Shown here: positions 3,594 to 28,810 of the stretch, in pieces | Position numbering within the stretch: the stretch's first letter is position 1 | Layout: every line of letters begins with the position of its first letter | Source: Candidatus Omnitrophota bacterium | GTDB taxonomy: Bacteria > Omnitrophota > Omnitrophia > Omnitrophales > Aquincolibacteriaceae | Reading direction: 5' to 3' | DNA length: 64,000 nucleotides | NCBI GenBank assembly: GCA_043821445.1 | Contig: JBDRCT010000031.1 | Location: 116,871 to 180,870, forward strand | Program-made: the position numbers and the translations under genes | The notes under the pieces: generated by a model | What the model was told of the DNA's origin: nothing | Databases searched by the model: none | What the model saw: only the letters and a program-made list of their open reading frames with translations

Positions 3594-4883
<1,290 letters not shown>

Positions 4884-5722: not shown

Positions 5723-5810
5723 TAGCCTTTGGGCCATGACGGGTTTTTCGATTTACTTTTGAATGTATTTAAGCCTCTAACGGGGCGGGTGCTCCAAAGG
5801 GAGATGTACC

Positions 5811-6608
5811 ATGAACCAGCTCGTAAAGAGAGCTTCGACTTCGGCGGCCTTTATTTTGATGGCGGTCGCCGTGATCTTTTATCTGCCGCATTGGTGCTTT
5901 TTTCTGGCGGTGGAGGCGTTCATCCTCGTGGGGCTCTGGGAATTCTTTTCCCTCGCAGAGCAAAAGGGACTGCTCGTTCACCGGGGATTCGGCCTTGTGT
6001 TCGGAGCACTTTTGCCGGCGTCCGCTTATTTCTCATTGCAGCCCACGAATCTTCTCATGGTTTGCGTCGCGCTTTTTATTTTTCTTTTCAACCGCCGCTC
6101 TCCGGACAAGACCATCACCAGCGTTTCGGTCAGCGTCTTCGGGATCATCTATGTGGCATGGTTCTTTTCTTATCTCATCAAGATCAAGCTTTTACCCGAC
6201 GGAGCGGCCTGGGTGGCTTATACGATCCTGACCGTGAAGGGCGGGGACATGGCCGCGTATTTTATCGGGAAAAAATTCGGGAGAACCAAACTTCTCGAAC
6301 ACGTCAGTCCCAAGAAGTCCATCGAAGGCGCCCTCGGCCAGATGTTCGCGACGATCGCCCTTTCGGTCGGTTCCGTTTTCTACCTTCATGTCTCGCCGAT
6401 TCATCTTCTCATTTTGGGGACTGCGGTCGGGGCGTTGGCGCTCCTGGGTGATCTCGCGGAAAGTCTGATCAAGCGCGACGCGGGTGTTAAAGATTCCGGG
6501 TCGATCCCGGGGCTCGGCGGCATGTTGGATGTGATGGACAGCCTTCTTTTTACCATCCCTGTTATTTATTTTTATCTGACCATGATCCTGGGTCTTGAAA
6601 GATTATGA
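5811..6608 (+). CDS. cdsA: Phosphatidate cytidylyltransferase
   Basis: Multi-TM protein with a CdsA C-terminal signature (YFIGKKFGRTKL...SPKKSIEG). Sits in the conserved uppS-cdsA-dxr-rseP order. Confidence 0.9.
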   Translation: MNQLVKRASTSAAFILMAVAVIFYLPHWCFFLAVEAFILVGLWEFFSLAEQKGLLVHRGFGLVFGALLPASAYFSLQPTNLLMVCVALFIFLFNRRSPDKTITSVSVSVFGIIYVAWFFSYLIKIKLLPDGAAWVAYTILTVKGGDMAAYFIGKKFGRTKLLEHVSPKKSIEGALGQMFATIALSVGSVFYLHVSPIHLLILGTAVGALALLGDLAESLIKRDAGVKDSGSIPGLGGMLDVMDSLLFTIPVIYFYLTMILGLERL

Positions 6609-10755: not shown

Positions 10756-11835
10756 ATGTGCTGGTCTAAGCAATTCATCCACATCGACATGGACGCGTTT
10801 TTTGCGGCGGTGGAGCAGCGTGACCGCCCGGAACTCAAAGGCCAGCCCGTGATCGTGGGCGGGAACCCGCAAAGCCGGAGCGTCGTGAGCACCTGTTCTT
10901 ATGAGGCCAGAAAATTCGGCATTCACTCCGCCATGCCGACCGCTCAAGCAAAACGTCTTTGCCCCCACGGCGTTTTCCTCTATCCCGATTTTGAAAAATA
11001 CAGCGCTGCTTCCAGATCCATTATGTCGATCTTTCACACCTACACGTCTCGGGTGGAACAGGTATCGCTGGATGAAGCCTACCTCGATGTCACCGAGAAC
11101 AAACTCAAGCTCGAAGATCCCGTGAAGCTTGCAACGCTGATCAAACAGCACATTTTTGCCGTGACGAAGCTCACCGCATCCGCCGGCGTAGCGCCCGCCA
11201 TGTTCCTGGCGAAGATCGCCTCTGATATGAAAAAACCGGACGGCCTGACGGTGGTCGTTCCGGACAAGGTCCTGGAATTCCTGAAAGATCTTCCGGTCCG
11301 GAAGATCCCGGGGGTCGGCCCTCGCACCGAAGAGATCCTTCACGGCATGACACTCCGGACGTGCGGGGATATCTGGGGCGTGCAGCCGCAAGATCTCACG
11401 GTGAAATTGGGGAAATGGGGACTGGAACTTTTCCATAAGGCGCGGGGAGAGGAGAACCGGGAAGTGAATCCTCATTGGGAGCGGACACAGTTGAGCGCCG
11501 AGGAAACGTTCCCGAAGGACATAACGGACCTGCCACGGCTTAAACAAAAGCTTGCGCAGCTCGCGGAGCATGTTTTTTATGATCTGAAGCAGGAAGGGCG
11601 CTTTGGAAGGACCGTCGTGTTCAAGGTGAAATACCATGATTTTGAGCAGATCACGCGATCCAAAACGCTTACCGCACCGCCCCAGGATTGGCATGTTCTT
11701 CACGAGATCGCCTGCGATCTTTTGAAGAAAAAAACCCTTGCCGGAAGAAAGTCCATCCGTTTGCTAGGGCTCGGCATGAGCGGGCTAGGCGTCAAAAACG
11801 AGTTCCCGGTTTCGACACAGGGAGAACTGTTTTGA
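10756..11835 (+). CDS. dinB: DNA polymerase IV (Y-family)
   Basis: HIDMDAFFAAVEQRD catalytic motif, SIDEAYLDVT, and a KIPGVGP helix-hairpin-helix. Confidence 0.92.
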   Translation: MCWSKQFIHIDMDAFFAAVEQRDRPELKGQPVIVGGNPQSRSVVSTCSYEARKFGIHSAMPTAQAKRLCPHGVFLYPDFEKYSAASRSIMSIFHTYTSRVEQVSLDEAYLDVTENKLKLEDPVKLATLIKQHIFAVTKLTASAGVAPAMFLAKIASDMKKPDGLTVVVPDKVLEFLKDLPVRKIPGVGPRTEEILHGMTLRTCGDIWGVQPQDLTVKLGKWGLELFHKARGEENREVNPHWERTQLSAEETFPKDITDLPRLKQKLAQLAEHVFYDLKQEGRFGRTVVFKVKYHDFEQITRSKTLTAPPQDWHVLHEIACDLLKKKTLAGRKSIRLLGLGMSGLGVKNEFPVSTQGELF

Positions 11836-12008
11836 AAAATTTCGGGCAATTCCTCGTTCGCCTTCCAGAAGACAACAGGAAGGAATGCCGGAAGGGTTTC
11901 GAAGAGGACTCGAAATTTTTGGAATTTAATTTCGACCTTCAATGGAAAAAAAGTATAGTAAACTATACGCATGGTTCAACCGTTCCCAATCTTTAAGCGA
12001 GAGATCAC

Positions 12009-13085
12009 ATGAATCTTCCCGTCCTCATACCTGCTTATAATCCGACAAAGATCTTGTCGGAATTGGTGCAGGCCCTTATCCGGCAGGGCTTTCAAAATAT
12101 CGTGGTCGTCGATGATGGAAGCGAGTCCGAATGTGCTTTTGTGTTCAGGGAAATAGAACAATGTCCGGAATGCACCGTATTGCGGCATGCCGTCAATCTT
12201 GGGAAAGGGGCGGCCTTAAAGACCGGTTTGAATCATATCTATTGTTCGTTCCCGGATCGGGCCGGGGCCATTACCCTTGATGCGGACGGCCAGCATTTGA
12301 TCGGTGACGTTCTCCGAGTGGAAGGTGCTTTAATGCTGCATCCTGAGAAATTGATCGTGGGAGCGAGGAAGTTCGATCAAGGCGTGCCTCTCCGAAGCAG
12401 GGTCGGGAATTTCATCACCAAAAATCTATTTTGCCTCTTGCTCGGGAAACGGCTGATGGACACACAAAGCGGATTGCGCGGGATCCCGATGGACTTCATC
12501 CCGCAACTTTTAAAGATCGGTTCGAATAGCTACGAGTTCGAGCTCGACATGCTTTTGGCATGCAAATATGCCGGCCGTCCCATCTTCGAGGAAGTCATAC
12601 AAACGGTGTATCTGGAGGGGAACAAGTCCTCTCACTTTAATCCCCTGATCGACTCGATGAAGATCTACTTCGCGCTCTTCCGGTTCGCATTGGCATCGCT
12701 CCTTGCGGCTTTGATCGACAACGTGATATTTTTTTTGGCATACGGCTCGAGTTTGAACATTGCCACAAGCCAGATCACGGGACGCGTGTTAAGCGCGACC
12801 TGCAATTATTTATTGGTCAAGAAGGCCGTTTTTTATTCTAAAAAACCTGTCGCGAAGACGCTCCCTGAATATTTTTTGCTCGTTTGTATTTCGGGGGCCG
12901 TCTCCTATTTCATGATCAAGACCATCACGGCTTATTTTCCGGTCCCGGTGATCGCGGCAAAGATCTTTTCCGAGACGGTCATTTTTTTGGCGAATTTCAC
13001 GATCCAGCGTGATTTTATATTTACCCAGGCCGCTCAAAGCAAAAGTGACCGGTTCAAATCTGAGGTCGACACTCAGCATGCATGA
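12009..13085 (+). CDS. GT2 family glycosyltransferase (polyprenyl-phosphate sugar synthase-like) fused to a C-terminal GtrA-like 4-TM domain
   Basis: N-terminal GT-A fold (VLIPAYNPTK...VVVDDGS...DADGQH, with the DxD motif). The C-terminal ~120 aa is hydrophobic with GtrA-like topology. Confidence 0.8.
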   Translation: MNLPVLIPAYNPTKILSELVQALIRQGFQNIVVVDDGSESECAFVFREIEQCPECTVLRHAVNLGKGAALKTGLNHIYCSFPDRAGAITLDADGQHLIGDVLRVEGALMLHPEKLIVGARKFDQGVPLRSRVGNFITKNLFCLLLGKRLMDTQSGLRGIPMDFIPQLLKIGSNSYEFELDMLLACKYAGRPIFEEVIQTVYLEGNKSSHFNPLIDSMKIYFALFRFALASLLAALIDNVIFFLAYGSSLNIATSQITGRVLSATCNYLLVKKAVFYSKKPVAKTLPEYFLLVCISGAVSYFMIKTITAYFPVPVIAAKIFSETVIFLANFTIQRDFIFTQAAQSKSDRFKSEVDTQHA

Positions 13086-14550
13086 GGAGACAAAGGAAAC
13101 GCTCAAAAAAACGGGCCTAAAGGCCTTTTTGCCTGGCAGTGAAATATTCCTGATCAATCCCTACATTACGAGTGCTGAGCGTTACGGGAAGGATATCGGC
13201 GATATGGGGGGGCATCAGATGCCTCTCGGAATCTACTATTTGGCGGCCCGTCTTTTACGGGATGGCAAGAAGGTAGAAGTGATCGACGCCGAGTCGCTCA
13301 GGATGCCCCATGATGAAGTGATTTTTTTTCTTAAAAAAGCTTCTCCCAAGATCATCGGCATCACTTCCACGAGCGTGGCATTTCGCAATGCCCGCTCTCT
13401 GGCGCAAATGATCCGCAAGGAGCTTCCCGGCATCGTCATCATTATCGGGGGACCCCATATGACTGCAATGCCCGATGCCACGATGCAATGCGGGGCTTTT
13501 GATTATGGGGTGGTCAGGGAAGGTGAGGCGGCTTTTTCCAAGCTTGTCAGATTTATTTTGGATCACGAGGGTTCTCTCGAAGGCATCCCCAATCTGTACT
13601 ATTTTGAGCATGCAACACTCCGGAGCAATTCCGAAGCTCCACCCATCCAAGACCTCGATGTCATCCCTTTTCCGGCAAGACAACTTTGCCGGGATCTCTC
13701 TTTATACAAACCCCCCGTGGGTGCTTTCCGTCTTCTGCCCGTGGTCAGCATGATCACCAGCCGGGGATGCCCCTATGAATGTATCTTTTGTGACAATAAT
13801 ACATTCGGACGCAGGACGCGCTTTCACTCCGCGGAGTATGTGGCGGCCGAGATCAAGGAATTGGTTCAAAAATATCATGCCAGGGAAATCGCCTTTTTGG
13901 ACGACACTTTCGTCTTGGATAAAAATAGATTGCGCCGGATCTTTAAAATATTGGACAAAGACAACTTTCATTTGAAGTGGACTTGTATGACGAGGGTCAA
14001 CAATCTGGATTTCGAACTTCTCAAGTTCATGAGGGATCATGGCTGTTGGCAGATCCGGATCGGGATCGAAAGCGGCAATCAGGGAGTGCTTGATTTTATC
14101 AAAAAGGGGATCACCCTGGGGCAAGTGAGGGATGTGGCGGGCTGGTGTAAGGAACTTAAAGTATGCGTCTCGGGATTTTTTATGATCGGGCACCACATCG
14201 ATACGCCCAAGACCATTCAAGAAACCATCGAATTGGCGGTGAAGCTGCCCTTGACCGATGTGATCGCGACCCTCCATACGCCGATTCCGGGGACTGAGTC
14301 CTACAAGCGGGCCAAAGAGTACGGGACTTATGAGGAGGGGGACTGGACCGCGCTCAATTATTGGACGCCCTGCTTTGTCCCTAAGGGCTTGACCCAAGCC
14401 TACATGCTCGCCAAACAGTCCGAACTTTATCGAAGATTTTATCTTCGCCCGGGTGTTTTGTTGCGCCAAGTAGGGAAGATCCGGTCGCTCGCGATCCTGC
14501 GGAGTTTTTTAAGAAGCGCATTTCTGGGTCTGATGTTCACCAAAAAATAA
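13078..14550 (+). CDS. B12-binding domain radical SAM protein (paralog 1)
   Basis: N-terminal cobalamin-binding-like Rossmann region, then ITSRGCPYECIFCDN (CxxxCxxC). The ATG at 13078 overlaps the upstream stop. The ORF track begins at 13009. Confidence 0.85.
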   Translation: MHEETKETLKKTGLKAFLPGSEIFLINPYITSAERYGKDIGDMGGHQMPLGIYYLAARLLRDGKKVEVIDAESLRMPHDEVIFFLKKASPKIIGITSTSVAFRNARSLAQMIRKELPGIVIIIGGPHMTAMPDATMQCGAFDYGVVREGEAAFSKLVRFILDHEGSLEGIPNLYYFEHATLRSNSEAPPIQDLDVIPFPARQLCRDLSLYKPPVGAFRLLPVVSMITSRGCPYECIFCDNNTFGRRTRFHSAEYVAAEIKELVQKYHAREIAFLDDTFVLDKNRLRRIFKILDKDNFHLKWTCMTRVNNLDFELLKFMRDHGCWQIRIGIESGNQGVLDFIKKGITLGQVRDVAGWCKELKVCVSGFFMIGHHIDTPKTIQETIELAVKLPLTDVIATLHTPIPGTESYKRAKEYGTYEEGDWTALNYWTPCFVPKGLTQAYMLAKQSELYRRFYLRPGVLLRQVGKIRSLAILRSFLRSAFLGLMFTKK

Positions 14551-14576
14551 TTCTACCGGTATGTTTTTTCACCCAG

Positions 14577-14905
14577 GATTGGCACGTTCTTCACGAGCTC
14601 GCCTGCGATCTTTTAAAGAAAAAACCCCTCGCCGGAAGAAAGCCCATCCGTTTGTTGGGGCTCGGCATGAGCGGGCTAGGCGCCAAAAACGAGCTCTCGG
14701 TTTCGACGCAAGGGGAACTGTTCTAACAAATTTTATTCAAAATGTTGGAATTTAATTTCAGCCTTCAACAGAAAAAAAGTATAGTAAACTATGCGCATGG
14801 CTCAGCCATTTCCATTCTTTAAGCGAAAGATCCTATGAATCCTTCTGTCCTCATACGTGCTTATAATCCGACAAAGATCCCGGCAGAGTTGGTGCGATCC
14901 TCTAT
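14577..14905 (+). repeat. Degenerate direct duplicate of the dinB 3' end, the downstream spacer and the GT2 5' end (copy of ~11688-12075)
   Basis: 14577-14726 matches 11688-11835 (ggcatgttcttcacgag..tcgcctgcgatctttt...gggctcggcatgagcgggctaggcg...ggagaactgtt) with scattered mismatches. 14764-14905 matches 11940-12075, including the GT2 start ATGAATC. The fragment then diverges and is non-coding. Confidence 0.85.
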
Positions 14906-15010
14906 CCGACGGAAGACCGTCGAATTATTTGTCAGCCATTTTAAATTCTTTGGGTTTCAAAACGAAAAGTTGTCGCAGCCAAGACCGGCTATGAAAAAGG
15001 ATGGGAGCTA

Positions 15011-16465
15011 ATGCGAATCGCTTTTATCAACCCGCCCTATCTGCATATCTACGGAAAAATTGCAACCGGCAAGCACTGTTCTTTTCCGCTAGGCTTAGGA
15101 TATATGGCCTCTTATGTTCGTGAGCATGGACATACTCCTGCGATTTTTGATATCGAAGCGATGCCCTATCCTTTTGCTGAAACATGGCAGCAAATACTCC
15201 GTTTTAAACCTGATCTTCTCGCGATCACCTCCGTTACCGCAAATTTTACCCAGGCAAAGTTCTTAGCCGAAAAGGCTAAAACTGAGATAGGCTGCCTTGT
15301 CATTATGGGGGGACCTCATGTTGCGGCGCTGCCGGAGGCCACTCTTCAGGCGGTGACCGGACTGGATGCAGTCATTACCGGGGAGGGAGAAGAACCATTG
15401 CGAATTCTGGCGGATCAATTCGATGCGACCGGTAAGGTCGACTTCGCTTCTGTCCCAAGCACGTGTTTCATCGCTCATGGCAAATTTCAACGGTCAGCCC
15501 GGCTGAGTTTGATAGAGAATCTCGATTGCATTCCCTATCCGGCCAGAGATCTTGTGGACATGTCATGGTATAGTTTGCCGCCTCATTTTCAACGCGGGAA
15601 AAAATCCGCCACTATTCTTTCTAGTCGCGGCTGTCCCTCTAAGTGCACTTTTTGCGGCAATCTTATTCATGGAAGAAATTTCCGTTTCAACAGTCCCGAT
15701 TATTTCGTATCTGAGCTTCAAATGCTTCGAGATAAATATGGCATACGGCACTTCCATGTTGTCGATGACTGCTTTTCAGCGGATCCGGAGCGGGTCCAGG
15801 CCATTTGCCGATTGATTCTTGATAGAAAGCTGACCGATATCACCTGGTTCATTTTTGGCCGGGCGGACACGCTTCAAGATGAAAAATTGATAACTAGCAT
15901 GCGTCGCGCCGGATGTGTTTATATTCTATTGGGAGTGGAAAGCGGTTCCGAGCACGTATTGGAAAAAATGCGCAAAGAGACGTCTCTTGATACCGTGAGA
16001 ACATGTTGCAAGCTTCTGCGCAAACATCGAATAGCCTACTTCAACTCTTTTATGATCGGGAATGTCGGGGAAACGGAAGAGGATGTCATGAAGAGCATCG
16101 CCTTTGCAAAGGAATTGAAATCTGTTATGGCTGGGTTCAGCATTATGACGCCGTTCCCGGGAACCCACATATTTAATAAGTTCTACAGCGATCTTGCGAA
16201 TAAGGATACCCATTGGGACAACTTCACTTCTGTTGCATCGAAAATCGCTTTCACTGTAAAACATACTTCCTTGAACAATTCTGATATTGAACGTTTAACG
16301 GCACTGGCATACAAAAAATTTTATTGCGACCTGTCCCAAATATTGAGACTTCTAAGTTTTATCAATAGCCCCAGAACATTCATAAGATACATAGGGGGCG
16401 GATTAGGGGTCTTGCGGTATTATCTTCAGTTGAAACGTCAATCGAAAAGCGCAAATCCTGGTTAG
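15011..16465 (+). CDS. B12-binding domain radical SAM protein (paralog 2)
   Basis: ILSSRGCPSKCTFCGN cluster motif. The N-terminal B12-binding-like domain is colinear with paralogs 1 and 3. Confidence 0.85.
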   Translation: MRIAFINPPYLHIYGKIATGKHCSFPLGLGYMASYVREHGHTPAIFDIEAMPYPFAETWQQILRFKPDLLAITSVTANFTQAKFLAEKAKTEIGCLVIMGGPHVAALPEATLQAVTGLDAVITGEGEEPLRILADQFDATGKVDFASVPSTCFIAHGKFQRSARLSLIENLDCIPYPARDLVDMSWYSLPPHFQRGKKSATILSSRGCPSKCTFCGNLIHGRNFRFNSPDYFVSELQMLRDKYGIRHFHVVDDCFSADPERVQAICRLILDRKLTDITWFIFGRADTLQDEKLITSMRRAGCVYILLGVESGSEHVLEKMRKETSLDTVRTCCKLLRKHRIAYFNSFMIGNVGETEEDVMKSIAFAKELKSVMAGFSIMTPFPGTHIFNKFYSDLANKDTHWDNFTSVASKIAFTVKHTSLNNSDIERLTALAYKKFYCDLSQILRLLSFINSPRTFIRYIGGGLGVLRYYLQLKRQSKSANPG

Positions 16466-16493
16466 CCATTTATCCAATCGATAAAGACCCGTT

Positions 16494-17396
16494 ATGAAAT
16501 TTCAAAAACAACAGCAATTATGTCCGGTGTGCGGTTCTGAAGGCTTTGATGTGGTTCTTTCTCCTTGGGCGGAAGAGGCCGACCCCGCTCAGTTGTATGG
16601 CGCGGCATCAGGGATGCCCGGAACGCAACAACTTGTGAAATGCTTGGCGTGCGGCATGATCTATGAAAACCCGCGTTATGATGCGAACGTCATTATTCAG
16701 GGATATACAGCATCGCAAGAGGCGGAACATGATAGCCAGTACCCCATGCGTGTTCGCAGTTTTTTTAAAACACTTCAAAAGCACATGGGAAAAATTCCTT
16801 CAAAAGGATCCAAAGTGTTGGATATTGGAACTGCGGGCGGTGCTTTTCTCGATGCAGCCAAGCAATTCGGATATAACGCCTATGGTATGGAGCCCTCAGC
16901 GGACTTGGTGAAACGCGGCCGCGCGCGTGGATTACAAGTAGAACAGGGGACGATTGAAAAACATAATTTCCTTCCCGGCTCTTTTGACATGGTTTGCCTG
17001 TGGGATGTTATTGAGCATTTGCCCGATCCAAAATCGGCGCTCATCGAGATTAGAAAATTATTGAAACCCAATGGCATTTTACTAGTCAATTTTCCTGATA
17101 TAGGGACTTTGCAAGCCAGGCTAGCTGGGAAGCGGTTCTGGTGGCTTCTGTCCGTTCATCTGCATCATTTCACACGCAAGTCCATGGCCGATATTTTTAA
17201 GCGAACCGGGTTTGAAGCTTTTCATTTCCAGCGCTATTGGCAAATTCTAGAGTTTGGCTATCTGGAAAAAATGGCAGCCCGTTACAAAATACCGTTCGCG
17301 GAGTTGATAGCTAACTTGACCCCAGGATCCATCCAAAGGATCCCGATCCCGTATTACGCGAGTCAAACAACAGCCCTTGCACGGATTTCAAAATGA
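16494..17396 (+). CDS. Class I SAM-dependent methyltransferase with N-terminal Zn-ribbon (sugar C-methyltransferase-like architecture)
   Basis: N-terminal CPVCGS...CLACGM zinc ribbon. VLDIGTAGGAF motif I and DMVCLWDVIEHLPDP motif. The architecture resembles NDP-sugar C-methyltransferases. Confidence 0.75.
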   Translation: MKFQKQQQLCPVCGSEGFDVVLSPWAEEADPAQLYGAASGMPGTQQLVKCLACGMIYENPRYDANVIIQGYTASQEAEHDSQYPMRVRSFFKTLQKHMGKIPSKGSKVLDIGTAGGAFLDAAKQFGYNAYGMEPSADLVKRGRARGLQVEQGTIEKHNFLPGSFDMVCLWDVIEHLPDPKSALIEIRKLLKPNGILLVNFPDIGTLQARLAGKRFWWLLSVHLHHFTRKSMADIFKRTGFEAFHFQRYWQILEFGYLEKMAARYKIPFAELIANLTPGSIQRIPIPYYASQTTALARISK

Positions 17397-18802
17397 CCAC
17401 TTACATTCTTGGGGCGGGGCCGACTGGTTTGGCGGTTGCGGACGGCTTGATCGATGTTAGCGCGGGCGATTTCGTGGTTTTGGAACAAGGCGCTAAATTG
17501 GGGGGGCAGGCCCGAACTGTTCGATGGGAAGGGGTGGGTCATCACGATCTTGGACCGCACAAGATTTTTTCTCTTAATAAACATTTAACCCACCGGGTCG
17601 AGGCTCTTCTCCCTGGATCTGACTGGTTAACGAGAGACAAAGTTAGCAGTATTTTTATGAGGGGACATTATTTGCCGTATCCCCCATCTCCATTCTCCCT
17701 TGCCGGTGTTTTTGGACTAGCGGCATTTCTGAAGATGGTTGCCGGTTATGGATTTGCGCGCATGGGTAGTTTGTTCAGTTCGCGCAAGTCCGCAACATTT
17801 GCGGAAGATCTGGTCACCCGCTTGGGGAGGCCGCTTTATGAGATTTTGTTTAAACCCATTGCCGAAAAATTATGGGGCGAGCCTAAGAGCTTGGATGTAA
17901 AATTGTCCAGAGGAAGAGTCCAAACCCCATCGCTTTTGGAGCTGCTTGGCCGGCTATTGAAGATCAAAAAAAACAGCGAATTTGAAGCATTGACGTTCCG
18001 CTATCCCAAGGGAGGATTGGGACGATTGTGGGAGGCTATTCAGACAAAGGCGCAAGGTCGCGGAAGGTTTCTTCTGGAACACACTGTCACAGGGCTTGGT
18101 GTGGAGGCTAACCGTGTCCGGCAGATCAGATTCTCTTCGAAAGAGATCAATGGAGTGATCGATTTAGCTCCGGAGGATCAGGTGGTTTCGACTTTGCCGC
18201 TGGCGCAAACGGCGCAGTTTTTATCTCAGGTATTGCCGCCCCATTTTCCGAAGTTGGTAGAAAATGTTATTGTCTTGAACGATCTGCTGCTAGTGTTCCT
18301 GCACATCGATAAGCCCAGTTTATTGCGTGAGTCTTGGCTGTTTATCCCGGATCCAGAAATCGCGTTCCATCGCTTGAGCGAACAAGAATCTTTTGATCCG
18401 GCGATGACCCCCAACGGTAGTATTGTGTGTTGCGAAATGATGAGCAGCGCTTGCCGCCCACTGGCTGGAAAAACTGATGAAGAGTTGTCTGCGCTTGCTC
18501 TTGAGGGGCTCGCGGCCATGGGTTACGGTGATTTTAAAGTGTTGGGCAAGAGAGTTCTTAGGTTGCCAAAGAGTTACCCGGTATTTCGCACCGGTTTTGA
18601 GGTCGGTTTGTCCGAACTTATCAACGCTCTAGATCAGTTCAAAAATTTTCATTCCATTGGAAGGCAAGGTGCATTTAATTACATAGGGACCCTTGATGCT
18701 ATGGACATTGGATACGGATTTGCTGACTGGCTCGCGAATGGTAGAAGTCGTCCTTGGCAGGACGAGCGCAAGAGAACCAATCACTATCCAGTGCTGGATT
18801 GA
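17393..18802 (+). CDS. FAD/NAD(P)-binding oxidoreductase (amine-oxidase/PPOX-like fold)
   Basis: N-terminal ILGAGPTGLAVA dinucleotide-binding motif. 469 aa. Start overlaps the methyltransferase stop. Confidence 0.75.
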   Translation: MTTYILGAGPTGLAVADGLIDVSAGDFVVLEQGAKLGGQARTVRWEGVGHHDLGPHKIFSLNKHLTHRVEALLPGSDWLTRDKVSSIFMRGHYLPYPPSPFSLAGVFGLAAFLKMVAGYGFARMGSLFSSRKSATFAEDLVTRLGRPLYEILFKPIAEKLWGEPKSLDVKLSRGRVQTPSLLELLGRLLKIKKNSEFEALTFRYPKGGLGRLWEAIQTKAQGRGRFLLEHTVTGLGVEANRVRQIRFSSKEINGVIDLAPEDQVVSTLPLAQTAQFLSQVLPPHFPKLVENVIVLNDLLLVFLHIDKPSLLRESWLFIPDPEIAFHRLSEQESFDPAMTPNGSIVCCEMMSSACRPLAGKTDEELSALALEGLAAMGYGDFKVLGKRVLRLPKSYPVFRTGFEVGLSELINALDQFKNFHSIGRQGAFNYIGTLDAMDIGYGFADWLANGRSRPWQDERKRTNHYPVLD

Positions 18803-18805
18803 ACC

Positions 18806-20317
18806 ATGCGATTAACGATGATCTCGCCGAGACTGGCTTTTCAAAAAGGAGATTTCCTGGGTTCCGGGGTCCCTTACTGGCCTTTGGAGTTGGCCACGCT
18901 TGCTGCCTACGCACTTCAGACGGGAGATACCGTTGCTTTTGTCGATCAGTTTGGTGCCAATCCGTCTCGACTCGCCGACGCAGGTGATCATTATCTCCAA
19001 GGGGAGCCCATTGATACCCCGGCGTGGCGTGAACGATTGGAGCAGGCGGAGGCATTTGTCTTGTACGCTATCTCCTATATGTCACACGGAGACTTACTTG
19101 TGACAATCCGATGGCTTAAAGATTCATTTCCTGAAAGACCAGTAGCCGTTCTGGAGAATTCTCAAGCAGTCACCGCTTACTCACTGGAGTGCATGGCACC
19201 CTCCTTTTTTGATGCGGGGGCGGATCTGCTGATCTGCGGGGAGCCCTACTTCAACTGGGCCGCGATCAAAAGACAATTAACGGAAAAGGGCCACGATCCA
19301 TCGATAGTTCCTAACGTCATCACGCGAGAATCTCGCGTCTCACCCCGCCGGTTCAATGAAAAACTAGACCGCTATCCAATTCCGGCATGGGATCTCATGA
19401 ATTTAGATGGATATTGGCGATTGCCCTATGCTCATGGTCCCAAAACGCGCAAATTCCTGCCGATCCTCACATCCCGGGGTTGTCCCTATCCTTGCGATTT
19501 TTGTGTTGTGCCTGAGACGAACGACAAACAGTGGCGGGGAAATGATCCCGAACAGGTTGTCGACGAGATGATCGCTCTGCGAGACCAATATGGTGTTCAT
19601 GACTTTCAGGTTGAGGATCTTAATCCTACCGTTCAACCCCATCGTTGGGAAAAAATTTGTGAACTTTTGATCAAGCGCAAAGCCGATATTCGGTTTTATT
19701 TTGTAAGCGGAACAAAAGCTGAAACTGTCCCTGTGGATAAAACAGCTCTGTTCGCAAAAGCCGGTTGCAGGTATCTATCCATCAGCCCGGAATCTGGCAG
19801 CAGCGATCTGATGCAAGTCATGGGGAAGAGATTTGACTATTCCCGGGGTGTCGAATTAATTGCGGCGTGTAAAGCCTGTGGCATTCGGACGCAAGCCTGT
19901 TTTTTGGTAGGGCATCCTAATGAAACGGAAAAAGATCTCGAACTTTCAAACAGCTACCTTTCACGCCTGGTCAAGGCGGGGTTAGATGAGGTCGCCGTTT
20001 TTGTTCTCGCACCCTTTGCAGGAAGTGAGCTCCATAGAAGAAAGAGCATCATTTTGAAAGATCAAAACACTCTCATCAGCTTTTCGCCGAAAGGACGGGC
20101 TGATTACGAAATGTTATCGCGTAGCAGGAGGATGCTTGTGCGAACTTTTCTCATCCAAAAATTAAAATATAACGGGATCGAATTGTGCTTGCAGGGATTG
20201 CGAGCGATTTTGGGTGTCCCAGAAACCAAGGTCGAAAATTTGCCCCGGCGGATGGTCTTTATTTACTGGCAGGTGCTGAAGCTAGCCGTGGCCAAAAAGT
20301 CAGGTCCTCGATCATGA
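18806..20317 (+). CDS. B12-binding domain radical SAM protein (paralog 3)
   Basis: ILTSRGCPYPCDFCVVPE cluster motif. Same domain order as the other two paralogs. Confidence 0.85.
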   Translation: MRLTMISPRLAFQKGDFLGSGVPYWPLELATLAAYALQTGDTVAFVDQFGANPSRLADAGDHYLQGEPIDTPAWRERLEQAEAFVLYAISYMSHGDLLVTIRWLKDSFPERPVAVLENSQAVTAYSLECMAPSFFDAGADLLICGEPYFNWAAIKRQLTEKGHDPSIVPNVITRESRVSPRRFNEKLDRYPIPAWDLMNLDGYWRLPYAHGPKTRKFLPILTSRGCPYPCDFCVVPETNDKQWRGNDPEQVVDEMIALRDQYGVHDFQVEDLNPTVQPHRWEKICELLIKRKADIRFYFVSGTKAETVPVDKTALFAKAGCRYLSISPESGSSDLMQVMGKRFDYSRGVELIAACKACGIRTQACFLVGHPNETEKDLELSNSYLSRLVKAGLDEVAVFVLAPFAGSELHRRKSIILKDQNTLISFSPKGRADYEMLSRSRRMLVRTFLIQKLKYNGIELCLQGLRAILGVPETKVENLPRRMVFIYWQVLKLAVAKKSGPRS

Positions 20318-21024
20318 ACTCACGGCGTGTGTTGATCATCATTCCTTGTTATAACGAGCAAGTGTCGGTTGCGTTGCTTTTGAAGGAAATTGCAGATTGC
20401 CGGCAAGGCTATGAAACGATCGTTATCGATGACGGTTCGCAAGATGCGACCTATCAAACAGCCCGTCAATTTTCACCTGCCGTGAAATTGCCGAGAAATC
20501 TTGGGATCGGGGGCGCAGTGCAAACGGGGATCAAATATGCTCGCAACCAAGGTTTTGATTTTTGCATTCAGCTGGATGGCGACGCCCAACACGATCCTCA
20601 TGAGATCCCGAAGCTTCTGCAGGCTTATCAGGAAATGCCTCACCCGATCATTATAGGCAGCCGCTATTTACAAAAGGATACATTTCGTTCGACTTGGGTG
20701 CGTAGATTCGGCGGAAAGATCATTGCAAAGGTAATGAGCTTATTATTTCCTGGAGGCACTATTACTGACCCCACAAGCGGTATGCGGTTAATGGATCGAA
20801 ATGCGATCGAATTTTTTTCAAAGCGCTATCCCCATGATTTTCCGGAGCCGATCTCTTTAGCATGGGCGCTCCGGGTGGGGTTTACGGTGGGTGAAGTCCA
20901 AGTCAAAATGCGTATGCGTACGCATGGAAAAAGTTCGATCGTGGGTCTGAAGCCCATAAGCTATATGTTCCGGGTCCTGGGGTATGTTATTCTAGCCCGG
21001 TTTTTGCGCATTTCAGCATTTTAA
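20314..21024 (+). CDS. GT2 family glycosyltransferase (polyprenyl-phosphate sugar synthase-like, ArnC/DPM1-like)
   Basis: VLIIIPCYNEQ...IVIDDGSQD...LDGDAQH motifs. The ATG at 20314 overlaps the rSAM3 stop. The ORF track starts further upstream at 20185. Confidence 0.82.
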   Translation: MNSRRVLIIIPCYNEQVSVALLLKEIADCRQGYETIVIDDGSQDATYQTARQFSPAVKLPRNLGIGGAVQTGIKYARNQGFDFCIQLDGDAQHDPHEIPKLLQAYQEMPHPIIIGSRYLQKDTFRSTWVRRFGGKIIAKVMSLLFPGGTITDPTSGMRLMDRNAIEFFSKRYPHDFPEPISLAWALRVGFTVGEVQVKMRMRTHGKSSIVGLKPISYMFRVLGYVILARFLRISAF

Positions 21025-21039
21025 CAGGAGGTTGTTCCT

Positions 21040-21423
21040 ATGTATGACGTTTCTATCAAAACCATTATTGCTATCACCCTTTTTGCCTGCGGGTATATGT
21101 TTTTTATTATTCGCAAGACAGCCCGAGGCCAACTGGACCTCTATGACCTGATCATGTTGTCCGCAGTGGCCATTATTCCGAGCGCGTTCGCATTGTTCCC
21201 CAAGGTCGGGGTTTTTTTAGCGACCAGTACGGGGGTGCTGTTTCCTTTTGTTGTGTTATTCGGGATCTTGCTTGTGATTCTCTTTATTTTTATACATCGC
21301 CTGACTGTCAAGATCCACCGATTGGAATCGGATAGCCGGTTGCTATTGCAGGAATTAAGTTTGCTCAAGCAAACCGTAGACAACAAACAAAGCCGCATTG
21401 CTCCGGCAGTTTCAGCTCAATAA
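21040..21423 (+). CDS. Small 3-4 TM membrane protein (DUF2304-like partner of GT2)
   Basis: 127 aa, very hydrophobic, with a C-terminal amphipathic tail. Lies immediately downstream of the GT2 gene, a pairing common for polyprenyl-P-sugar synthases. Confidence 0.6.
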   Translation: MYDVSIKTIIAITLFACGYMFFIIRKTARGQLDLYDLIMLSAVAIIPSAFALFPKVGVFLATSTGVLFPFVVLFGILLVILFIFIHRLTVKIHRLESDSRLLLQELSLLKQTVDNKQSRIAPAVSAQ

Positions 21424-21524
21424 ATCCTTTTTTGCGACCAGAGTTCTCAAGATCTCCGTTGCGGAGCATTGACGTGACGAGGGTCGATAGGTGCCGAGGA
21501 GCATCCTTCGGCGTCTCGAACTCT

Positions 21525-23327
21525 TTAATTTCCCCATAAAGGAGCATGTTCCTTTTTCAATTTCAAATACTCAACCAACACCGCCAAAGCTTTTTCTTTA
21601 TCCCCTTTTTCTTTGTACAGCAGCGCTAAAGCATCGTAGCCCTCTTTTGAAGAAGGAGAGACGGCGATCGCCTTCCGAAAACAAGAAATAGCCTCATCCT
21701 CACGCCCTGTTTCGCGGTAAAGTTCCCCAAGCTGGATATAGTAGAAGGGGTATTGAGGATTATCGTGCGTGGCTTTTTCTAATGATTGAATAGCCCTTGA
21801 GATTTTCCCTTCCTTAATAAAAGAGATGGCTTCATTATAAAAAAACAAACCTTGGGATGATTCCTTCGTTGGTTGTTGTAAGAATAAAACTTCCTGTAGA
21901 TACCGTTTGCTCATTTCAGAATTTCCTAAGGCTGAATACGCATTGCTCATGTTCGCCAGGAGCCGCGGGGTTTGCCGACCTGTTTCCAGCGCTTTTTGAT
22001 AATAAAGGAGAGCGGTTTTTTCATCTTTTCGCTCTTTGGAGTAGGCTTCGCCCAGCAGCATGTAAGAACGGTACTTGAAGGGGGATTTTCTGATATTGTC
22101 ACGCCAGAAGACGAACGGATCTTTCCATAATTCATTCCTGGCATAAGTCATTCCGGATAAAACGACTGCGAGGATCAGAATCGCAGCCAGAAAACCCCTT
22201 GAGGATTTCGTAAGCAACCACAAAAAAGATGCAACGAAAAGAGAGAAGCCGAACATCGGGAGGTATAAGCGATGTTCGAAGATGACATCGGGATAGGGGA
22301 TCAGAGAGGACTCAACGCTTAAGGTCAGGAAGAACCATAAGATCCCGAAGGAGAGAAGACGGTATTTTTTAAAAAAGAGGAAACTTAGGACAAGAAGACT
22401 CACAAGTAACGAAAATGCTGCCCACGCGTCAGGATCTCCCCAAGCTGCCGACATACGGTAATCATAATCAAGGCATTGACCTGCTGGAAAAAAAAGAAGC
22501 CGCAAATAGGTCCTCATGACGCGGAATTCGGTCAGGAGGAAATCCCAGCGGGAAATGTGGGTGTTCCATGTGGGCAATAGATTCATGGCGCCGCCGATGC
22601 GAACAAGATTGTCCTTGTAAATGATCCAGGTTAACGGGACGACCAAAAGGAAGGCGGCGAAAGGGAGCCATCGGAGGACCTTTTTTGCGAACGTTTCTTT
22701 TTCGGAAAGCGGGAAAAAAAACCATTCCACAAGCAGGATTGCAAAAGGAAGAGTAAAACCGATCTCTTTAGTGAACATGGCTGCCAGCATGGAAAGAAAG
22801 ACGGCCGGGTAATACCGGGCGTTTTCAATTCGTGCCTTTAAATACATCCAGAGCGTTGCCAGGTAAAAAAGAGTGGCTAATGAGGTCATTCGCTGGACGA
22901 CGTATGTGACGGCCTGGGTCTGGATCGGATGCGTTACGAATAAAAGAGCGGTCCCGAGTGCGAACAGATCCCGGTGCGAGGCGGACAGAGTATCCTTGAG
23001 TGCAGGGGTGCTCAGCAGCAGTCGAGTGGTCCCGAAAACGGTGAGCGATACCAGAAGGTGGATCAGCAAATTGATGAGATGAAAACCCCAAGGCGCTAGG
23101 CCCGTCAAAACATATTGCAGGGCAAAGCTTAGGTTCGCGACAAAACGGGTAGGAAAACTTTCCCAGATCCTTCCCAGGTTGATAGGAGGGCGCAAGGAGA
23201 GATTTTCAACGATACGCATCTGATCGTCAAAATAAAATGGGACATCAAAAGTGTTAGAATAGGCCAGGACCCCGAAAAGCAGGATCAGGAGCAAACAGGT
23301 TCGCGAGGATAACGGTTTTGAATTCAT
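21525..23327 (-). CDS. PMT/TMTC-like (GT-C fold) polytopic membrane glycosyltransferase-like protein with C-terminal TPR repeats, paralog 1 (type A)
   Basis: 600 aa. Its ~11-TM N-terminal domain carries a YFDD motif after TM1. The C-terminal ~200 aa consists of TPR repeats (AYSALGN..., YYQKALE...). Confidence 0.7.
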   Translation of the reverse strand: MNSKPLSSRTCLLLILLFGVLAYSNTFDVPFYFDDQMRIVENLSLRPPINLGRIWESFPTRFVANLSFALQYVLTGLAPWGFHLINLLIHLLVSLTVFGTTRLLLSTPALKDTLSASHRDLFALGTALLFVTHPIQTQAVTYVVQRMTSLATLFYLATLWMYLKARIENARYYPAVFLSMLAAMFTKEIGFTLPFAILLVEWFFFPLSEKETFAKKVLRWLPFAAFLLVVPLTWIIYKDNLVRIGGAMNLLPTWNTHISRWDFLLTEFRVMRTYLRLLFFPAGQCLDYDYRMSAAWGDPDAWAAFSLLVSLLVLSFLFFKKYRLLSFGILWFFLTLSVESSLIPYPDVIFEHRLYLPMFGFSLFVASFLWLLTKSSRGFLAAILILAVVLSGMTYARNELWKDPFVFWRDNIRKSPFKYRSYMLLGEAYSKERKDEKTALLYYQKALETGRQTPRLLANMSNAYSALGNSEMSKRYLQEVLFLQQPTKESSQGLFFYNEAISFIKEGKISRAIQSLEKATHDNPQYPFYYIQLGELYRETGREDEAISCFRKAIAVSPSSKEGYDALALLYKEKGDKEKALAVLVEYLKLKKEHAPLWGN

Positions 23328-23333
23328 AGGGCT

Positions 23334-25124
23334 TTAATTTCCGAACAAGGGTTTGTGCTTCTTCTTGAATTTCAGGTATTCCACCAAGACATCCACAGCT
23401 TTCTGCGGGTCCCCCTTTTCCTTATAAAAAAAAGCCAAAGCGTTATAGCCCTCCTGGGATAAAGGGGCCAGCTCGATGGCTTTCCGGAAAGAAGACACAG
23501 CCTCGTCCTCCTGCTGCATTTTGCGATAGGCCTCGCCGAGTTGGATGTACGTCCAAGGATTCTGAGGGCTTATTTGTATGTCTTTCTTCAGCATCGTTAC
23601 AGCTTCCGCATATTCACCCTTGTTTATCAGAGTGAGCGCCTGGTTATCATAAAAAGAAAGTGTTTTTCTTAACACTGAAAATGATAAAGCTATATTTTTA
23701 AAGTAAACGCTTTTCTCACGATCACCAAGTTGAAAATAAATTTCAGACAGGTTTAAAAAAACCAGGGGAGTGGTAAATCCCAAGTCCAACGCTTTTTGAA
23801 AACAAAATGCCGCGGCTTTGTAATCCTTCACTTCTCTTCTGTAGGCATCACCCAGGCCGGCATAACAAATCCCCTTGTGAGGTGTTTTTTTTACGACGTC
23901 TTGGGCTAGTGAAAGCTTGCTTTTCCACACCTCGTTCCGGGCGTAAGTCATACCTGAAAAAACAACAGTGATAACCAACGAAACAGCGGTGAACCATTTG
24001 ACGGACCTTACTAGTGTCCAAAGAAGCGATGTCAAGAAGAGGACAAATCCGAACGTGGGGAGATAAAGTCGGTGTTCGAATATCAGATCAGGAACAGGGA
24101 TGAAGGAAGATTCGACGCTGAGAGTCAGGAAGAACCATAAAACGCCGAAAGTTAAGAGCCGGTTCTTTTTAAAGCATGCGAGTGACAGAAGCAAAACACT
24201 GAAAAGCAGTGAAAAAGCCACCCACGTATCCGGATCTCCCCAGCCTTTTGAAAGACGATAATCATAGATAAGGCATTGATCGACCGGAAAAAAAAGAAGC
24301 CGCAAGTAGGTCCTTTCGACGCGGAACTGAGTTAAGAAATAATCCCACCGGGAGATATTCTTGGCCATAGATGGAAGGATGTTCATGGATCCACTATCGC
24401 GCGTGAAGATATGAATATTGGTCAGATAAAGTAATGGGATGATCAAAAGAAATGCCGCAAAAGGGAGCCAGCGGATCAATTTTTTGCCGAGAGGATCTTC
24501 GGCCGAGGGCGGAAAGAAGAACAATTCCGAGAGCAGGATCGCGAAGGGGAGGGTGAAGCTGATCTCTTTGGTCAACATGGCTGCCAACATGAGGAGAAAA
24601 ACAACCCGGTAGTAACGGGCGTCCTCCAGCCGTGCCTTAAGGTACATCCAGAGCGTAGCCAAATAAAAAAGGGCCGCCATCGAAGTCAAACGCTGCACAA
24701 TATAAGTGACCGCCTGGGTTTGCACAGGATGCGTTAAAAAAAGAAGTGCGGCGACCACGGCAAACAGATTCTGTTGTGCGGGAGGCACCCAATTTTTCAT
24801 GGCAGGGGTGTTGAGGATCGATAGAGTAAGATTGAACACGACGCACGAAGCAAGGATATGTATTAGCAGATTGACAACGTGAAAGCCCCATGTTGCAAAG
24901 CCCGTCAGGTAAATGTTGAAAGCGAAGCTGAGATTTACAATAAAGCGAAGCGGATGGTAGATCCAGAGTTTTCCGAGATCCAGGGGCTGAAGGGAACGGT
25001 TTTCCAGGATGTTGGGGATATCATCAAATTGAAAAGCTCCGGTCAAACTATTAGAGTAGGCCGCGATCCCGAAGAGCAGGATGAGGAGCAGACAGGTTCG
25101 TGTGGATAACGGTTTTAGATCCAT
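23334..25124 (-). CDS. PMT/TMTC-like GT-C membrane protein with TPR domain, paralog 2 (type B)
   Basis: 596 aa with a QFDD motif. The N-terminal ~230 aa is nearly identical to paralog 4. The C-terminus is a TPR domain. Confidence 0.7.
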   Translation of the reverse strand: MDLKPLSTRTCLLLILLFGIAAYSNSLTGAFQFDDIPNILENRSLQPLDLGKLWIYHPLRFIVNLSFAFNIYLTGFATWGFHVVNLLIHILASCVVFNLTLSILNTPAMKNWVPPAQQNLFAVVAALLFLTHPVQTQAVTYIVQRLTSMAALFYLATLWMYLKARLEDARYYRVVFLLMLAAMLTKEISFTLPFAILLSELFFFPPSAEDPLGKKLIRWLPFAAFLLIIPLLYLTNIHIFTRDSGSMNILPSMAKNISRWDYFLTQFRVERTYLRLLFFPVDQCLIYDYRLSKGWGDPDTWVAFSLLFSVLLLSLACFKKNRLLTFGVLWFFLTLSVESSFIPVPDLIFEHRLYLPTFGFVLFLTSLLWTLVRSVKWFTAVSLVITVVFSGMTYARNEVWKSKLSLAQDVVKKTPHKGICYAGLGDAYRREVKDYKAAAFCFQKALDLGFTTPLVFLNLSEIYFQLGDREKSVYFKNIALSFSVLRKTLSFYDNQALTLINKGEYAEAVTMLKKDIQISPQNPWTYIQLGEAYRKMQQEDEAVSSFRKAIELAPLSQEGYNALAFFYKEKGDPQKAVDVLVEYLKFKKKHKPLFGN

Positions 25125-28781: not shown

Positions 28782-28810
28782 AGAGCCTCAAAATTGAGCG
28801 ATCGCGGCGC

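Follow-up and report, generated by a model that had tools for sequence, protein, structure and literature searches.

Radical SAM enzymes joined to putative polyprenyl-phosphate sugar synthases in a candidate glycosylation island of an Omnitrophota bacterium

This report concerns a cluster of radical S-adenosylmethionine (SAM) enzyme genes in a Candidatus Omnitrophota bacterium (GenBank assembly GCA_043821445.1). It lies in a stretch of 64,000 nucleotides of contig JBDRCT010000031.1 (positions 116,871 to 180,870, forward strand), the whole of which was analysed; we refer to this 64-kb stretch as the window and use its own numbering throughout. Open reading frame (ORF) calls and Pfam scans delineate eight tightly packed genes across 12009-21423, all on the + strand. 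Three of them encode radical SAM enzymes, termed rSAM1, rSAM2 and rSAM3 here, and the others two family 2 glycosyltransferases (GT2), a methyltransferase, a flavoprotein and a small membrane protein. In the reading that we favour, with moderate confidence in its general outline, these genes form two modules that build radical-SAM-tailored polyprenyl-phosphate sugars as donors for periplasmic glycosylation. The genes and the gap between the modules are as follows:

12009-13085, + strand: GT2 with a C-terminal GtrA/DPMS-type transmembrane domain (Pfam Glycos_transf_2 and GtrA_DPMS_TM)
13078-14550, + strand: rSAM1, 490 aa, CPYECIFC (Pfam B12-binding and Radical_SAM)
14551-15010: non-coding gap of 460 nt between rSAM1 and rSAM2
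14572-14908, + strand: diverged duplicate of an upstream segment, 83-90% identity (repeat search and alignment, translations, reading of the sequence)
15011-16465, + strand: rSAM2, 484 aa, CPSKCTFC (Pfam B12-binding and Radical_SAM)
16494-17396, + strand: class I SAM methyltransferase with an N-terminal four-Cys zinc ribbon (Pfam Methyltransf_23, E 3e-26)
17393-18802, + strand: UDP-galactopyranose-mutase-like flavoenzyme (profile search against the PDB)
18806-20317, + strand: rSAM3, 503 aa, CPYPCDFC, with a diverged Rossmann N-domain (Pfam Radical_SAM only)
20314-21024, + strand: small GacI/PpgS/GtrB-like GT2 (PDB matches; best NCBIfam match PpgS)
21040-21423, + strand: GacJ/Rv3632-like small membrane protein of the DUF2304 family (Pfam DUF2304, E 4.5e-12)

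A first-pass annotation, made from the sequence alone, had already described the five genes from rSAM1 to rSAM3, the CxxxCxxC motifs of the three radical SAM enzymes and the GT2 neighbours at 12009-13085 and 20314-21024. These descriptions stand, as does the placement of class B-type radical SAM enzymes in the context of sugars and polyprenyl-phosphate sugars. The genes do not form the continuous array suggested there, however, as the 460-nt gap splits rSAM1 from rSAM2. We distinguish module A (12009-14550), a self-standing pair of the GT2-GtrA protein and rSAM1, from module B (15011-21423), which comprises rSAM2, the methyltransferase, the flavoprotein, rSAM3, the small GT2 and the DUF2304 protein. 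Within module A, the start of rSAM1 overlaps the stop of the GT2 by 8 nt: ATGCATGA. Within module B, the true start of the small GT2 lies in an ATGA overlap with the rSAM3 stop, and the DUF2304 gene begins 15 nt downstream of the GT2.

The gap itself contains the second copy of a direct repeat of about 400 bp (11681-12082 and 14572-14908), which aligns in two pieces of 90% and 83% identity. The repeat covers the 3' end of dinB, an intergenic promoter-like region (TATAGT) and about 25 codons from the start of the module A GT2, and it records an old rearrangement that joined modules A and B. The second copy runs on as a 58-codon remnant ORF (14835-15011), the stop of which overlaps the rSAM2 start (TAATG), so that it may provide both a promoter and translational coupling for module B.

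Module B has a conserved core. A metagenome search with a profile of the flavoprotein yielded 80 loci, and the counts given here refer to those with at least 40% identity and enough flanking sequence. The methyltransferase gene stands upstream of the flavoprotein gene in 47 of 48 loci, rSAM3 is present in 38 of 42, the small GT2 in 24 of 30, and DUF2304 follows the GT2 in 21 of 30; at least 12 long loci share exactly the order methyltransferase-flavoprotein-rSAM3-GT2-DUF2304, and altogether the core retains its gene order in about 25-30 metagenome loci. By contrast, rSAM2 occurs in a single one of the 21 long-flank loci (2 of 27 with more distant loci added); overall, it accompanies the cassette in about ten loci and is missing from most. 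Where orthologs of rSAM2 (at least 47% identity) are found, they co-occur with homologs of the methyltransferase, flavoprotein, rSAM3 and GT2, namely in a close relative (locus L001, 80%), in metagenome-assembled genomes of Syntrophaceae, Verrucomicrobiota and Elusimicrobiota, and in one further genome, with the gene order shuffled among the cassettes of other phyla. In another close relative (L100, 8885-9085), only codons 1-67 of rSAM2 (81% identity) are left, directly upstream of the methyltransferase; judged by its sequence, this fragment is a deletion remnant, which indicates that rSAM2 is dispensable. Together, the locus counts and this remnant mark rSAM3 as the obligatory radical SAM enzyme of module B and rSAM2 as an add-on. 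More distant rSAM2 relatives in Elusimicrobia (43-49% identity) lie without the cassette among unannotated genes and give no functional clue. The closest rSAM2 relative belongs to a 90%-identity cluster that includes MFH1800171.1, a 484-aa 'radical SAM protein' encoded on the same NCBI contig as proteins that are 100% identical to PurA and rSAM1 of the window; we take it to be the rSAM2 of the window.

Some of these loci have additional components. Upstream of the L001 cassette, a 669-aa protein (4339-6348) fuses an N-terminal GT2 to a C-terminal radical SAM domain and is followed by a further B12-binding radical SAM enzyme (6345-7808), another link between GT2 and radical SAM proteins in a polysaccharide locus. 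In L002, a 118-aa EamA-like membrane protein (11467-11823) is encoded between rSAM2 and the methyltransferase; it is possibly an ArnE/F-type flippase subunit, and it has no counterpart in the window.

The last two genes of module B point to a lipid-linked product. The best PDB matches of the small GT2 are DPMS (5mlz, 2e-16), GtrB (5ekp, 5e-12) and ArnC (4e-10), and since these solved relatives are all polyprenyl-phosphate glycosyltransferases, we class it as a putative polyprenyl-phosphate sugar synthase, although its score with the PpgS equivalog model stays far below the cut-off (76 versus 370). The protein encoded after it matches DUF2304 with 46.6 bits (cut-off 25.5). This is the family of GacJ, which activates the glycosyltransferase GacI (bioRxiv 10.1101/180810), and by analogy, the DUF2304 protein would be the activating partner of the small GT2. 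It is nevertheless conceivable that module B supplies a modified nucleotide sugar for the cytoplasmic (Leloir) assembly of O-antigen or capsule repeats, with the small GT2 as a conventional chain-building transferase. Its low PpgS score would agree with this, as would the position of the genes in L001, L002, L083 and Thiovibrio, where they lie in classic polysaccharide loci (Rml, Wzx/Wzz, Bac_transf and GT4). Against it stand the kinship of the GT2 with lipid-phosphate enzymes and the GacJ-type gene that so often follows it, and self-contained module B operons also exist outside polysaccharide loci, beside large polytopic membrane proteins (e.g. L084 and L139). We therefore regard a Leloir-type role as unlikely and prefer the synthesis of a polyprenyl-phosphate sugar. 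The setting of the cassette, either in Rml/Wzz/Bac_transf/GT4 polysaccharide loci or beside PMT_2 genes, is also in line with the glycosylation reading that we favour.

All three radical SAM enzymes match the Pfam Radical_SAM domain (PF04055) with 71-79 bits (cut-off 29.5; E 1e-19 to 1e-22), and their CxxxCxxC cysteines are C231/C235/C238 in rSAM1, C208/C212/C215 in rSAM2 and C226/C230/C233 in rSAM3. They had been introduced as paralogs, which is correct at the superfamily level, but not for a local set: the pairwise identities are 29% (rSAM1/rSAM2), 27% (rSAM2/rSAM3) and 23% (rSAM1/rSAM3), and each protein belongs to an orthologous group of its own with a different distribution. An origin by triplication in situ is ruled out by these identities. 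As anticipated, none of the three clusters tightly with a characterised family. We scored them against the curated NCBIfam models for the class B enzymes HpnJ, BchE, HpnR, PhpK, ApyD, the ladderane-lipid enzyme, MgmA, BzaD, AprD4, KedN5 and TsrM, and all scores are far under the cut-offs; the best ones are HpnJ for rSAM1 (202 versus 578), BchE for rSAM2 (165 versus 481) and BzaD for rSAM3 (90 versus 450), while HpnR reaches 111 of 650 and AprD4 63-104 of 500. On these scores and the gene context, we reject hopanoid, BchE and ladderane identities, and the public labels 'anaerobic Mg-protoporphyrin IX monomethyl ester cyclase' (BchE) and 'YgiQ' on these genes are uninformative. Among solved structures, AprD4 (PDB 6fd2) is the best sequence match for all three (E 1e-15 to 1e-23).

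The three enzymes differ in their relation to cobalamin. In OxsB, TsrM and TokK, base-off cobalamin is bound by three motifs: a Ser-containing 'downstream' motif on the β3-α3 loop, a Gly-Gly on β4, which forms a pocket for dimethylbenzimidazole and ribose, and a Gly-Glu at the start of α5 (PMC9204698). The Pfam B12-binding domain (PF02310, cut-off 32.1 bits) is found in rSAM1 (67.0 bits) and rSAM2 (67.4 bits), and both possess all three motifs. In rSAM1, these are G94-I-T-S97-T, G124-G125 and G149-E150, with Gly-Gly and Gly-Glu invariant in 61 family sequences and S97 kept in 51; in rSAM2, they are T73-S74-V-T76, G100-G101 and G124-E125, which are conserved or invariant in an alignment of 31 sequences. 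Based on these features, both are assigned to the class B (cobalamin-type) radical SAM enzymes and are predicted to bind cobalamin. The first-pass annotation had attributed a B12-binding domain to rSAM3 as well. Here, PF02310 has no match even at E <= 1 and matches weakly in 6 of 45 relatives. At the end of β4, rSAM3 reads V113-A-V-L-E117-N118-S-Q where rSAM2 has G-G-P-H, so that Gly-Gly (G100-G101 in rSAM2) is replaced by Glu-Asn, and N118 is invariant in the 45 sequences; the other two regions are retained as A88-I-S90-Y-M-S-H94 and G145-E146. Loss of cobalamin-binding residues, which the first-pass annotation had named as evidence that would refute its proposal, thus applies in part to rSAM3.

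Despite this divergence, rSAM3 is homologous to the rSAM2 family across both domains (hhalign probability 100%, E 6e-52, columns 2-415). An AlphaFold2 model, for which an alignment of rSAM1 and rSAM2 relatives was used, has a five-stranded Rossmann N-domain (predicted local distance difference test 78, predicted template modelling score 0.82). In a Foldseek search with this model, AprD4 ranks first over the full length (E 6e-21, template modelling scores 0.67/0.73), above MgmA, TsrM, OxsB and TokK. Since Gly-Gly is lost and the closest structural match, AprD4, does not bind cobalamin, rSAM3 may be independent of cobalamin or use a tail-less corrinoid. Its family is small: among 1.84 billion cluster representatives, 199 match at E <= 1e-30, versus 27,769 at E <= 1e-3.

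Two gene fusions tie the radical SAM enzymes functionally to their neighbours. In P0368, a protein resembling rSAM3 (41% identity, full length) is continued by a C-terminal GT2 that shows the IPCYNE / VDDGS / DxD pattern of the class to which the small GT2 belongs. In P0119, which is encoded by the cultured Thiovibrio frasassiensis, a B12-binding radical SAM enzyme (31% identical to rSAM2) is combined with a methyltransferase that is 34% identical to that of the window, zinc ribbon included (E 4e-44). The P0119 gene lies inside a Wzx/GT/Bac_transf polysaccharide locus. Other rSAM3-like proteins have unusual architectures. In P0433 (753 aa), an intein that contains an HNH endonuclease interrupts the sequence immediately ahead of the radical SAM core (Intein_splicing, residues 224-507), and P0397, P0420, P0435, P0449, P0453, P0484 and P0494, of 1,800-2,600 aa with 2-4 rSAM3-matching stretches each, look like fusions of several radical SAM enzymes.

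Module A recurs independently of module B. Orthologs of rSAM1 with 60-72% identity are found in Nitrospirota, Desulfobacterota, Armatimonadota, Victivallaceae and Omnitrophota, and rSAM1 is immediately preceded by a GT2-GtrA gene in all five contexts examined, that is, in the window and in four others from four phyla (L087-L090), where the GT2 orthologs share 44-54% identity. Large proteins, either polytopic or with tetratricopeptide repeats (TPR), accompany it in these other contexts. Its GT2 is probably a polyprenyl-phosphate sugar synthase as well, as judged from its sequence, and its fused GtrA_DPMS_TM domain is a candidate flippase.

This distribution bears on the original proposal that the three radical SAM enzymes form one cassette and act one after another on the same sugar or lipid substrate, by cobalamin-dependent C-methylation or other radical chemistry. 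Their adjacency on one strand and their common class B two-domain architecture would suit such a pathway, and with a copy of the module A promoter region in front of module B, the two could be co-regulated. Nevertheless, the genes do not travel together when their co-occurrence is followed across genomes: module B is missing from all four of the other contexts in which rSAM1 and its GT2 are found, no metagenome locus with the module B core carries rSAM1, and 25 of the 27 long-flank loci lack rSAM2. Added to this, rSAM2 has been deleted in a close relative, and rSAM3 lacks the Gly-Gly motif. A single pathway thus appears distinctly improbable; rSAM1 belongs to a separate pair, rSAM2 is mostly absent, and only rSAM3 is part of the core. 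We prefer two modules, each with its own polyprenyl-phosphate sugar synthase.

The flavoprotein had been described as an FAD oxidoreductase, which its closest relatives do not bear out. A profile of six family sequences finds the UDP-galactopyranose mutase (UGM) of Aspergillus fumigatus (AfUGM) in the PDB over its full length (E 1.7e-37), and the best matches other than mutases are CrtD (2e-21) and protoporphyrinogen oxidase (9e-16). H56, W161, R175, W315, R327, Y395, R424 and Y430 are strictly conserved across 68 distinct members of the family, as is the GxGxxG Rossmann motif for flavin adenine dinucleotide, and in a HMMER alignment H56, R175, W315, R327, Y395, R424 and Y430 correspond to His63, Arg182, Trp315, Arg327, Tyr419, Arg447 and Tyr453 of AfUGM. 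The protein is accordingly classified, by sequence, as a UGM relative that keeps the catalytic His and the diphosphate-binding Arg and Tyr residues, and mutase activity is predicted. The model for bacterial Glf (TIGR00031) is not reached (16.8 bits versus a cut-off of 303.75), and the closest NCBI models are unnamed PRK07208 variants (211 bits versus 389). Distant relatives are encoded on megaplasmids of the cultured Methylomagnum ishizawai and Gloeothece verrucosa, where they are coupled to or adjoin GT2 genes. On pRS11DPr1 of M. ishizawai (L171, 3841-8455), for instance, the start of the flavoprotein gene (26% identity) overlaps the GT2 stop, and a GT39 (GT-C) gene lies just upstream; such a trio of GT2, mutase-like protein and GT-C without radical SAM enzymes could serve as a tractable model.

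With these results, the suggestion that the substrate is a lipid of the hopanoid or glycerol dialkyl glycerol tetraether type finds no support. In a broader form, it would hold that the radical SAM enzymes methylate a polyprenyl carrier, a hopanoid or another isoprenoid and that the flavoprotein desaturates or reduces it, in keeping with the membership of the latter in the amine-oxidase/phytoene-desaturase superfamily, with HpnJ as the best match of rSAM1, with further matches to the HpnR and ladderane-lipid models, and with the genes uppS, dxr and cdsA 5-8 kb upstream. These model matches all fall far short of their cut-offs, however, whereas the flavoprotein matches UGM by 16-22 orders of magnitude better than CrtD or protoporphyrinogen oxidase and keeps the residues that bind the UDP diphosphate. 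Moreover, squalene-hopene cyclase and other hopanoid genes are not found in the window, and uppS, cdsA, dxr and rseP make up an ordinary cluster of housekeeping genes, so that lipid tailoring is very unlikely. Most improbable of all is a cluster for an aminoglycoside- or nucleoside-like natural product, with AprD4-like enzymes for the deoxygenation or methylation of its sugar moiety: AprD4 is the best solved match, and the class B enzymes GenK, Fom3 and OxsB do use sugars or nucleotides as substrates in the biosynthesis of antibiotics (PMC12931638), but the AprD4 model is missed by a wide margin, and the window has lipid-phosphate GT2s, DUF2304 and GT-C/TPR genes instead of genes for cyclitols, aminotransferases, nonribosomal peptide or polyketide synthases, resistance and export.

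The methyltransferase has a conserved CxxCG...CxxCG zinc ribbon and had been likened to sugar C-methyltransferases; a weak resemblance does exist (KijD1 3e-9, TcaB9 2e-7), but it is confined to the zinc ribbon and the SAM domain. The defining Pfam domains of the NDP-hexose 3-C-methyltransferases TylC3, TcaB9 and KijD1 (PF08421 and PF08484) have no match in it at E <= 1, and with 300 aa it is too short for the C-terminal domain of Methyltransf_14.

Candidates for the transfer of the lipid-linked sugars are encoded directly downstream on the opposite strand:

21525-23327, - strand: T1, polytopic with C-terminal TPR (TPR Pfam matches, F-x-x-D-D loop motif, hydrophobic segments)
23334-25124, - strand: T2, T1 paralog (58% identity to T1, 82% to T4)
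25124-26872, - strand: T3, T1 paralog (52% identity to T1)
26991-28781, - strand: T4, T1 paralog (59% identity to T1)
28947-30746, - strand: T5, T1 paralog (57% identity to T1; weak PMT_2 match, E 4.9e-4)
30932-32857, - strand: T6, distant family member with 23-25% identity (sub-cut-off PMT_2, E 1.8e-5, and TPR; F-x-W-D-D kept)

These proteins of about 600 aa consist of a polytopic N-terminal half and C-terminal TPR, and all six share an F-x-(F/W)-D-D motif in the first loop, a feature set that makes them probable GT-C transferases. T1-T5 are 42-82% identical to each other, and T6 is 23-25% identical to the rest; the 82% identity of T2 and T4 suggests a recent duplication, and the expansion to six copies suggests several acceptor specificities. 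Relatives adjoin class B radical SAM genes in loci from Nitrospinia, Armatimonadetes, Desulfobacterales and Nitrospirae. With module A in particular, T1-like genes are found in L087 and L089, the latter from Nitrospirae, where the protein beside the module is 35% identical to T1 over the full length. Other module B loci are usually flanked by polytopic proteins that are 640-1230 aa long and have 6-18 predicted hydrophobic segments. These flanking proteins are mostly without mutual BLAST similarity between loci and too diverse to align, and hence no single partner transferase can be defined.

Taken together, we propose that the region 12009-21423 represents the cytoplasmic, donor-building half of a periplasmic glycosylation island. 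In module A, the DPMS-like GT2-GtrA protein would load a sugar onto polyprenyl phosphate, and rSAM1 would most likely C-methylate this sugar in its nucleotide-bound or its lipid-bound form. In module B, the UGM-like flavoenzyme would first turn an NDP-hexopyranose into a furanose; rSAM3 would then carry out a radical step, most likely a dehydration/deoxygenation or a rearrangement and maybe cobalamin-free; the zinc-ribbon methyltransferase would add a methyl group; and rSAM2, where present, would add a further, probably C-methyl, group in a cobalamin-dependent reaction. The product would be loaded onto polyprenyl phosphate by the GacI-like GT2, activated by its GacJ-like DUF2304 partner. After flipping, the six GT-C/TPR proteins would pass the sugars of both modules to periplasmic or surface acceptors. 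We are less confident of the furanose and the radical tailoring than of the general outline, and it is only tentatively that we picture the product of the module B core as a new lipid-linked donor, that is, a methylated hexofuranose on polyprenyl phosphate, remodelled by the radical SAM enzyme (deoxygenated, rearranged or C-branched). In this tentative picture, rSAM3 would act in a complex with the GT2, as suggested by their fusion in P0368, possibly on the lipid-linked sugar, and the GT2-GtrA protein with rSAM1 would be a second, simpler system. Together, the two could represent a widespread 'radical-tailored' class of three-component glycosylation in anaerobes.

Directly observed are the domain identities, the conserved residues, the synteny and the gene fusions, and several points weigh against the proposal built on them. 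None of the radical SAM groups, the methyltransferase family or the mutase-like family includes a characterised member, and each chemical step, along with the substrates and the order of the steps, is therefore proposed by analogy. In the flavoprotein, the uracil contacts of UGM are only partly kept (N163 is replaced by Ala, and Q107 is not conserved), so that its nucleotide or sugar may differ from that of UGM. The structural model of rSAM3 may be biased by the alignment from which it was built. Furthermore, Pfam scans of the main ORFs reveal no genes for cobalamin synthesis or uptake in the window, nor is a flippase for module B recognisable there. As for the transferases, PMT_2 matches are found in just 4 of 11 T relatives and stay under the Pfam cut-off, a profile search of the PDB with the T family returned no match, and an AlphaFold2 model of T1 from six sequences (predicted local distance difference test 69) is poor in the membrane half and matched only TPR structures in Foldseek.

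The genomic setting has features of an island. The segment 12009-32857, about 21 kb in length, is flanked by dinB and leuC. Upstream lie the housekeeping genes clpP, serA, purA, uppS, cdsA, dxr, rseP, proS and dinB, and downstream leuCD, a cluster for a type IV pilus or type II secretion system and resistance-nodulation-division pumps. Within the island (12000-32000), the G+C content is 0.45-0.50, compared with 0.53-0.55 over the 12 kb that precede it; on the downstream side it varies, from 0.49-0.51 adjoining the island to higher values farther out. The low value is compatible with horizontal acquisition. The window contains no tRNA gene, and Pfam scans of its main ORFs detect no integrase or other recombinase. 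The secretion-type cluster (35119-46610) encodes PilM, PilO, a secretin, an ATPase and a platform protein as well as three pilin-like proteins (45119-46610), and a 591-aa coiled-coil protein without a Pfam family (35119-36894) stands before it. Pilins are common targets of glycosylation.

The modules may be of interest beyond this genome. To our knowledge, no cobalamin-type radical SAM enzyme has been tied to cell-surface glycosylation via lipid-linked donors. Functions have been assigned to only a few of the more than 220,000 members of the superfamily (PMC12931638). Being compact and conserved, with two and five genes, the modules are small enough for heterologous expression, and they recur in Omnitrophota, Nitrospirota, Desulfobacterota, Verrucomicrobiota, Elusimicrobiota and Armatimonadota. 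Their characterisation could yield new sugar chemistry in the form of C-methyl, deoxy or furanose donors, assign a function to PRK07208 'hypothetical' flavoproteins and provide a marker by which unusual surface glycans could be recognised in uncultured anaerobes. The present analysis, meanwhile, corrects the habitual annotation of these genes as 'BchE' or 'YgiQ'.

No characterised system of this composition was found in the literature, as the first-pass annotation had supposed; we found no paper on radical SAM enzymes coupled to polyprenyl-phosphate sugar synthases, and a search for C-methylation of nucleotide sugars returned known methylases only. The individual components nevertheless have known counterparts. 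The flavoenzyme shares full-length homology, the His loop DLGPHKIF and the UDP-diphosphate-binding Arg and Tyr residues with eukaryote-type UGMs (A. fumigatus 3ute, Trypanosoma cruzi 4dsg), but is only about 25% identical to them and has some of the uracil contacts replaced. The radical SAM enzymes share their two-domain layout with AprD4, the sugar-acting radical SAM 1,2-diol dehydratase of apramycin biosynthesis, the Rossmann-like N-domain of which binds no cobalamin; they differ from it in their low identity (~20%), in the absence of an AprD3-like reductase from the cassette and in the cobalamin motifs of rSAM1 and rSAM2. Likewise, they have the N-terminal Rossmann domain and CxxxCxxC core in common with class B methylases and with non-methylases of the HpnJ/BchE type, but their partners, GT2, DUF2304 and GT-C/TPR proteins, match those of no characterised member.

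At the level of whole systems, a furanose on polyprenyl phosphate, auxiliary tailoring and GT-C transfer outside the cytoplasm would be reminiscent of the mycobacterial decaprenyl-phospho-arabinofuranose pathway (DprE1/E2) and of the pentofuranose three-component systems of PPPRS, MATE flippase and GT136 (Kelly et al., PNAS 2024; PMC11127046). Yet, those pathways start from phosphoribosyl pyrophosphate and employ a phosphoribosyltransferase and epimerase tailoring, whereas module B would use an NDP-hexose, a flavin-dependent mutase, a GT2 and tailoring by radical SAM enzymes and a methyltransferase; they share no homologous component with the modules described here. Closer in architecture are the three-component Gac/Gtr systems, such as GacI-GacJ-GacK-GacL of Streptococcus pyogenes, PpgS-Rv3632 of Mycobacterium tuberculosis and GtrA/B/C of Shigella phages, which resemble module B in the small polyprenyl-phosphate-type GT2 followed by DUF2304 and in the large polytopic candidate GT-C genes nearby. 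These systems move an unmodified common sugar (N-acetylglucosamine, N-acetylgalactosamine or glucose), whereas the putative synthase of module B is syntenic with a UGM-like flavoenzyme, a radical SAM enzyme and a methyltransferase; furthermore, module B shows no evident flippase of the Wzx or GtrA type, and its candidate transferases are TPR-bearing and present in six copies. We thus regard the locus as a combination of components of known kinds, an uncharacterised variant of three-component glycosylation that constitutes a testable lead rather than a categorical surprise.

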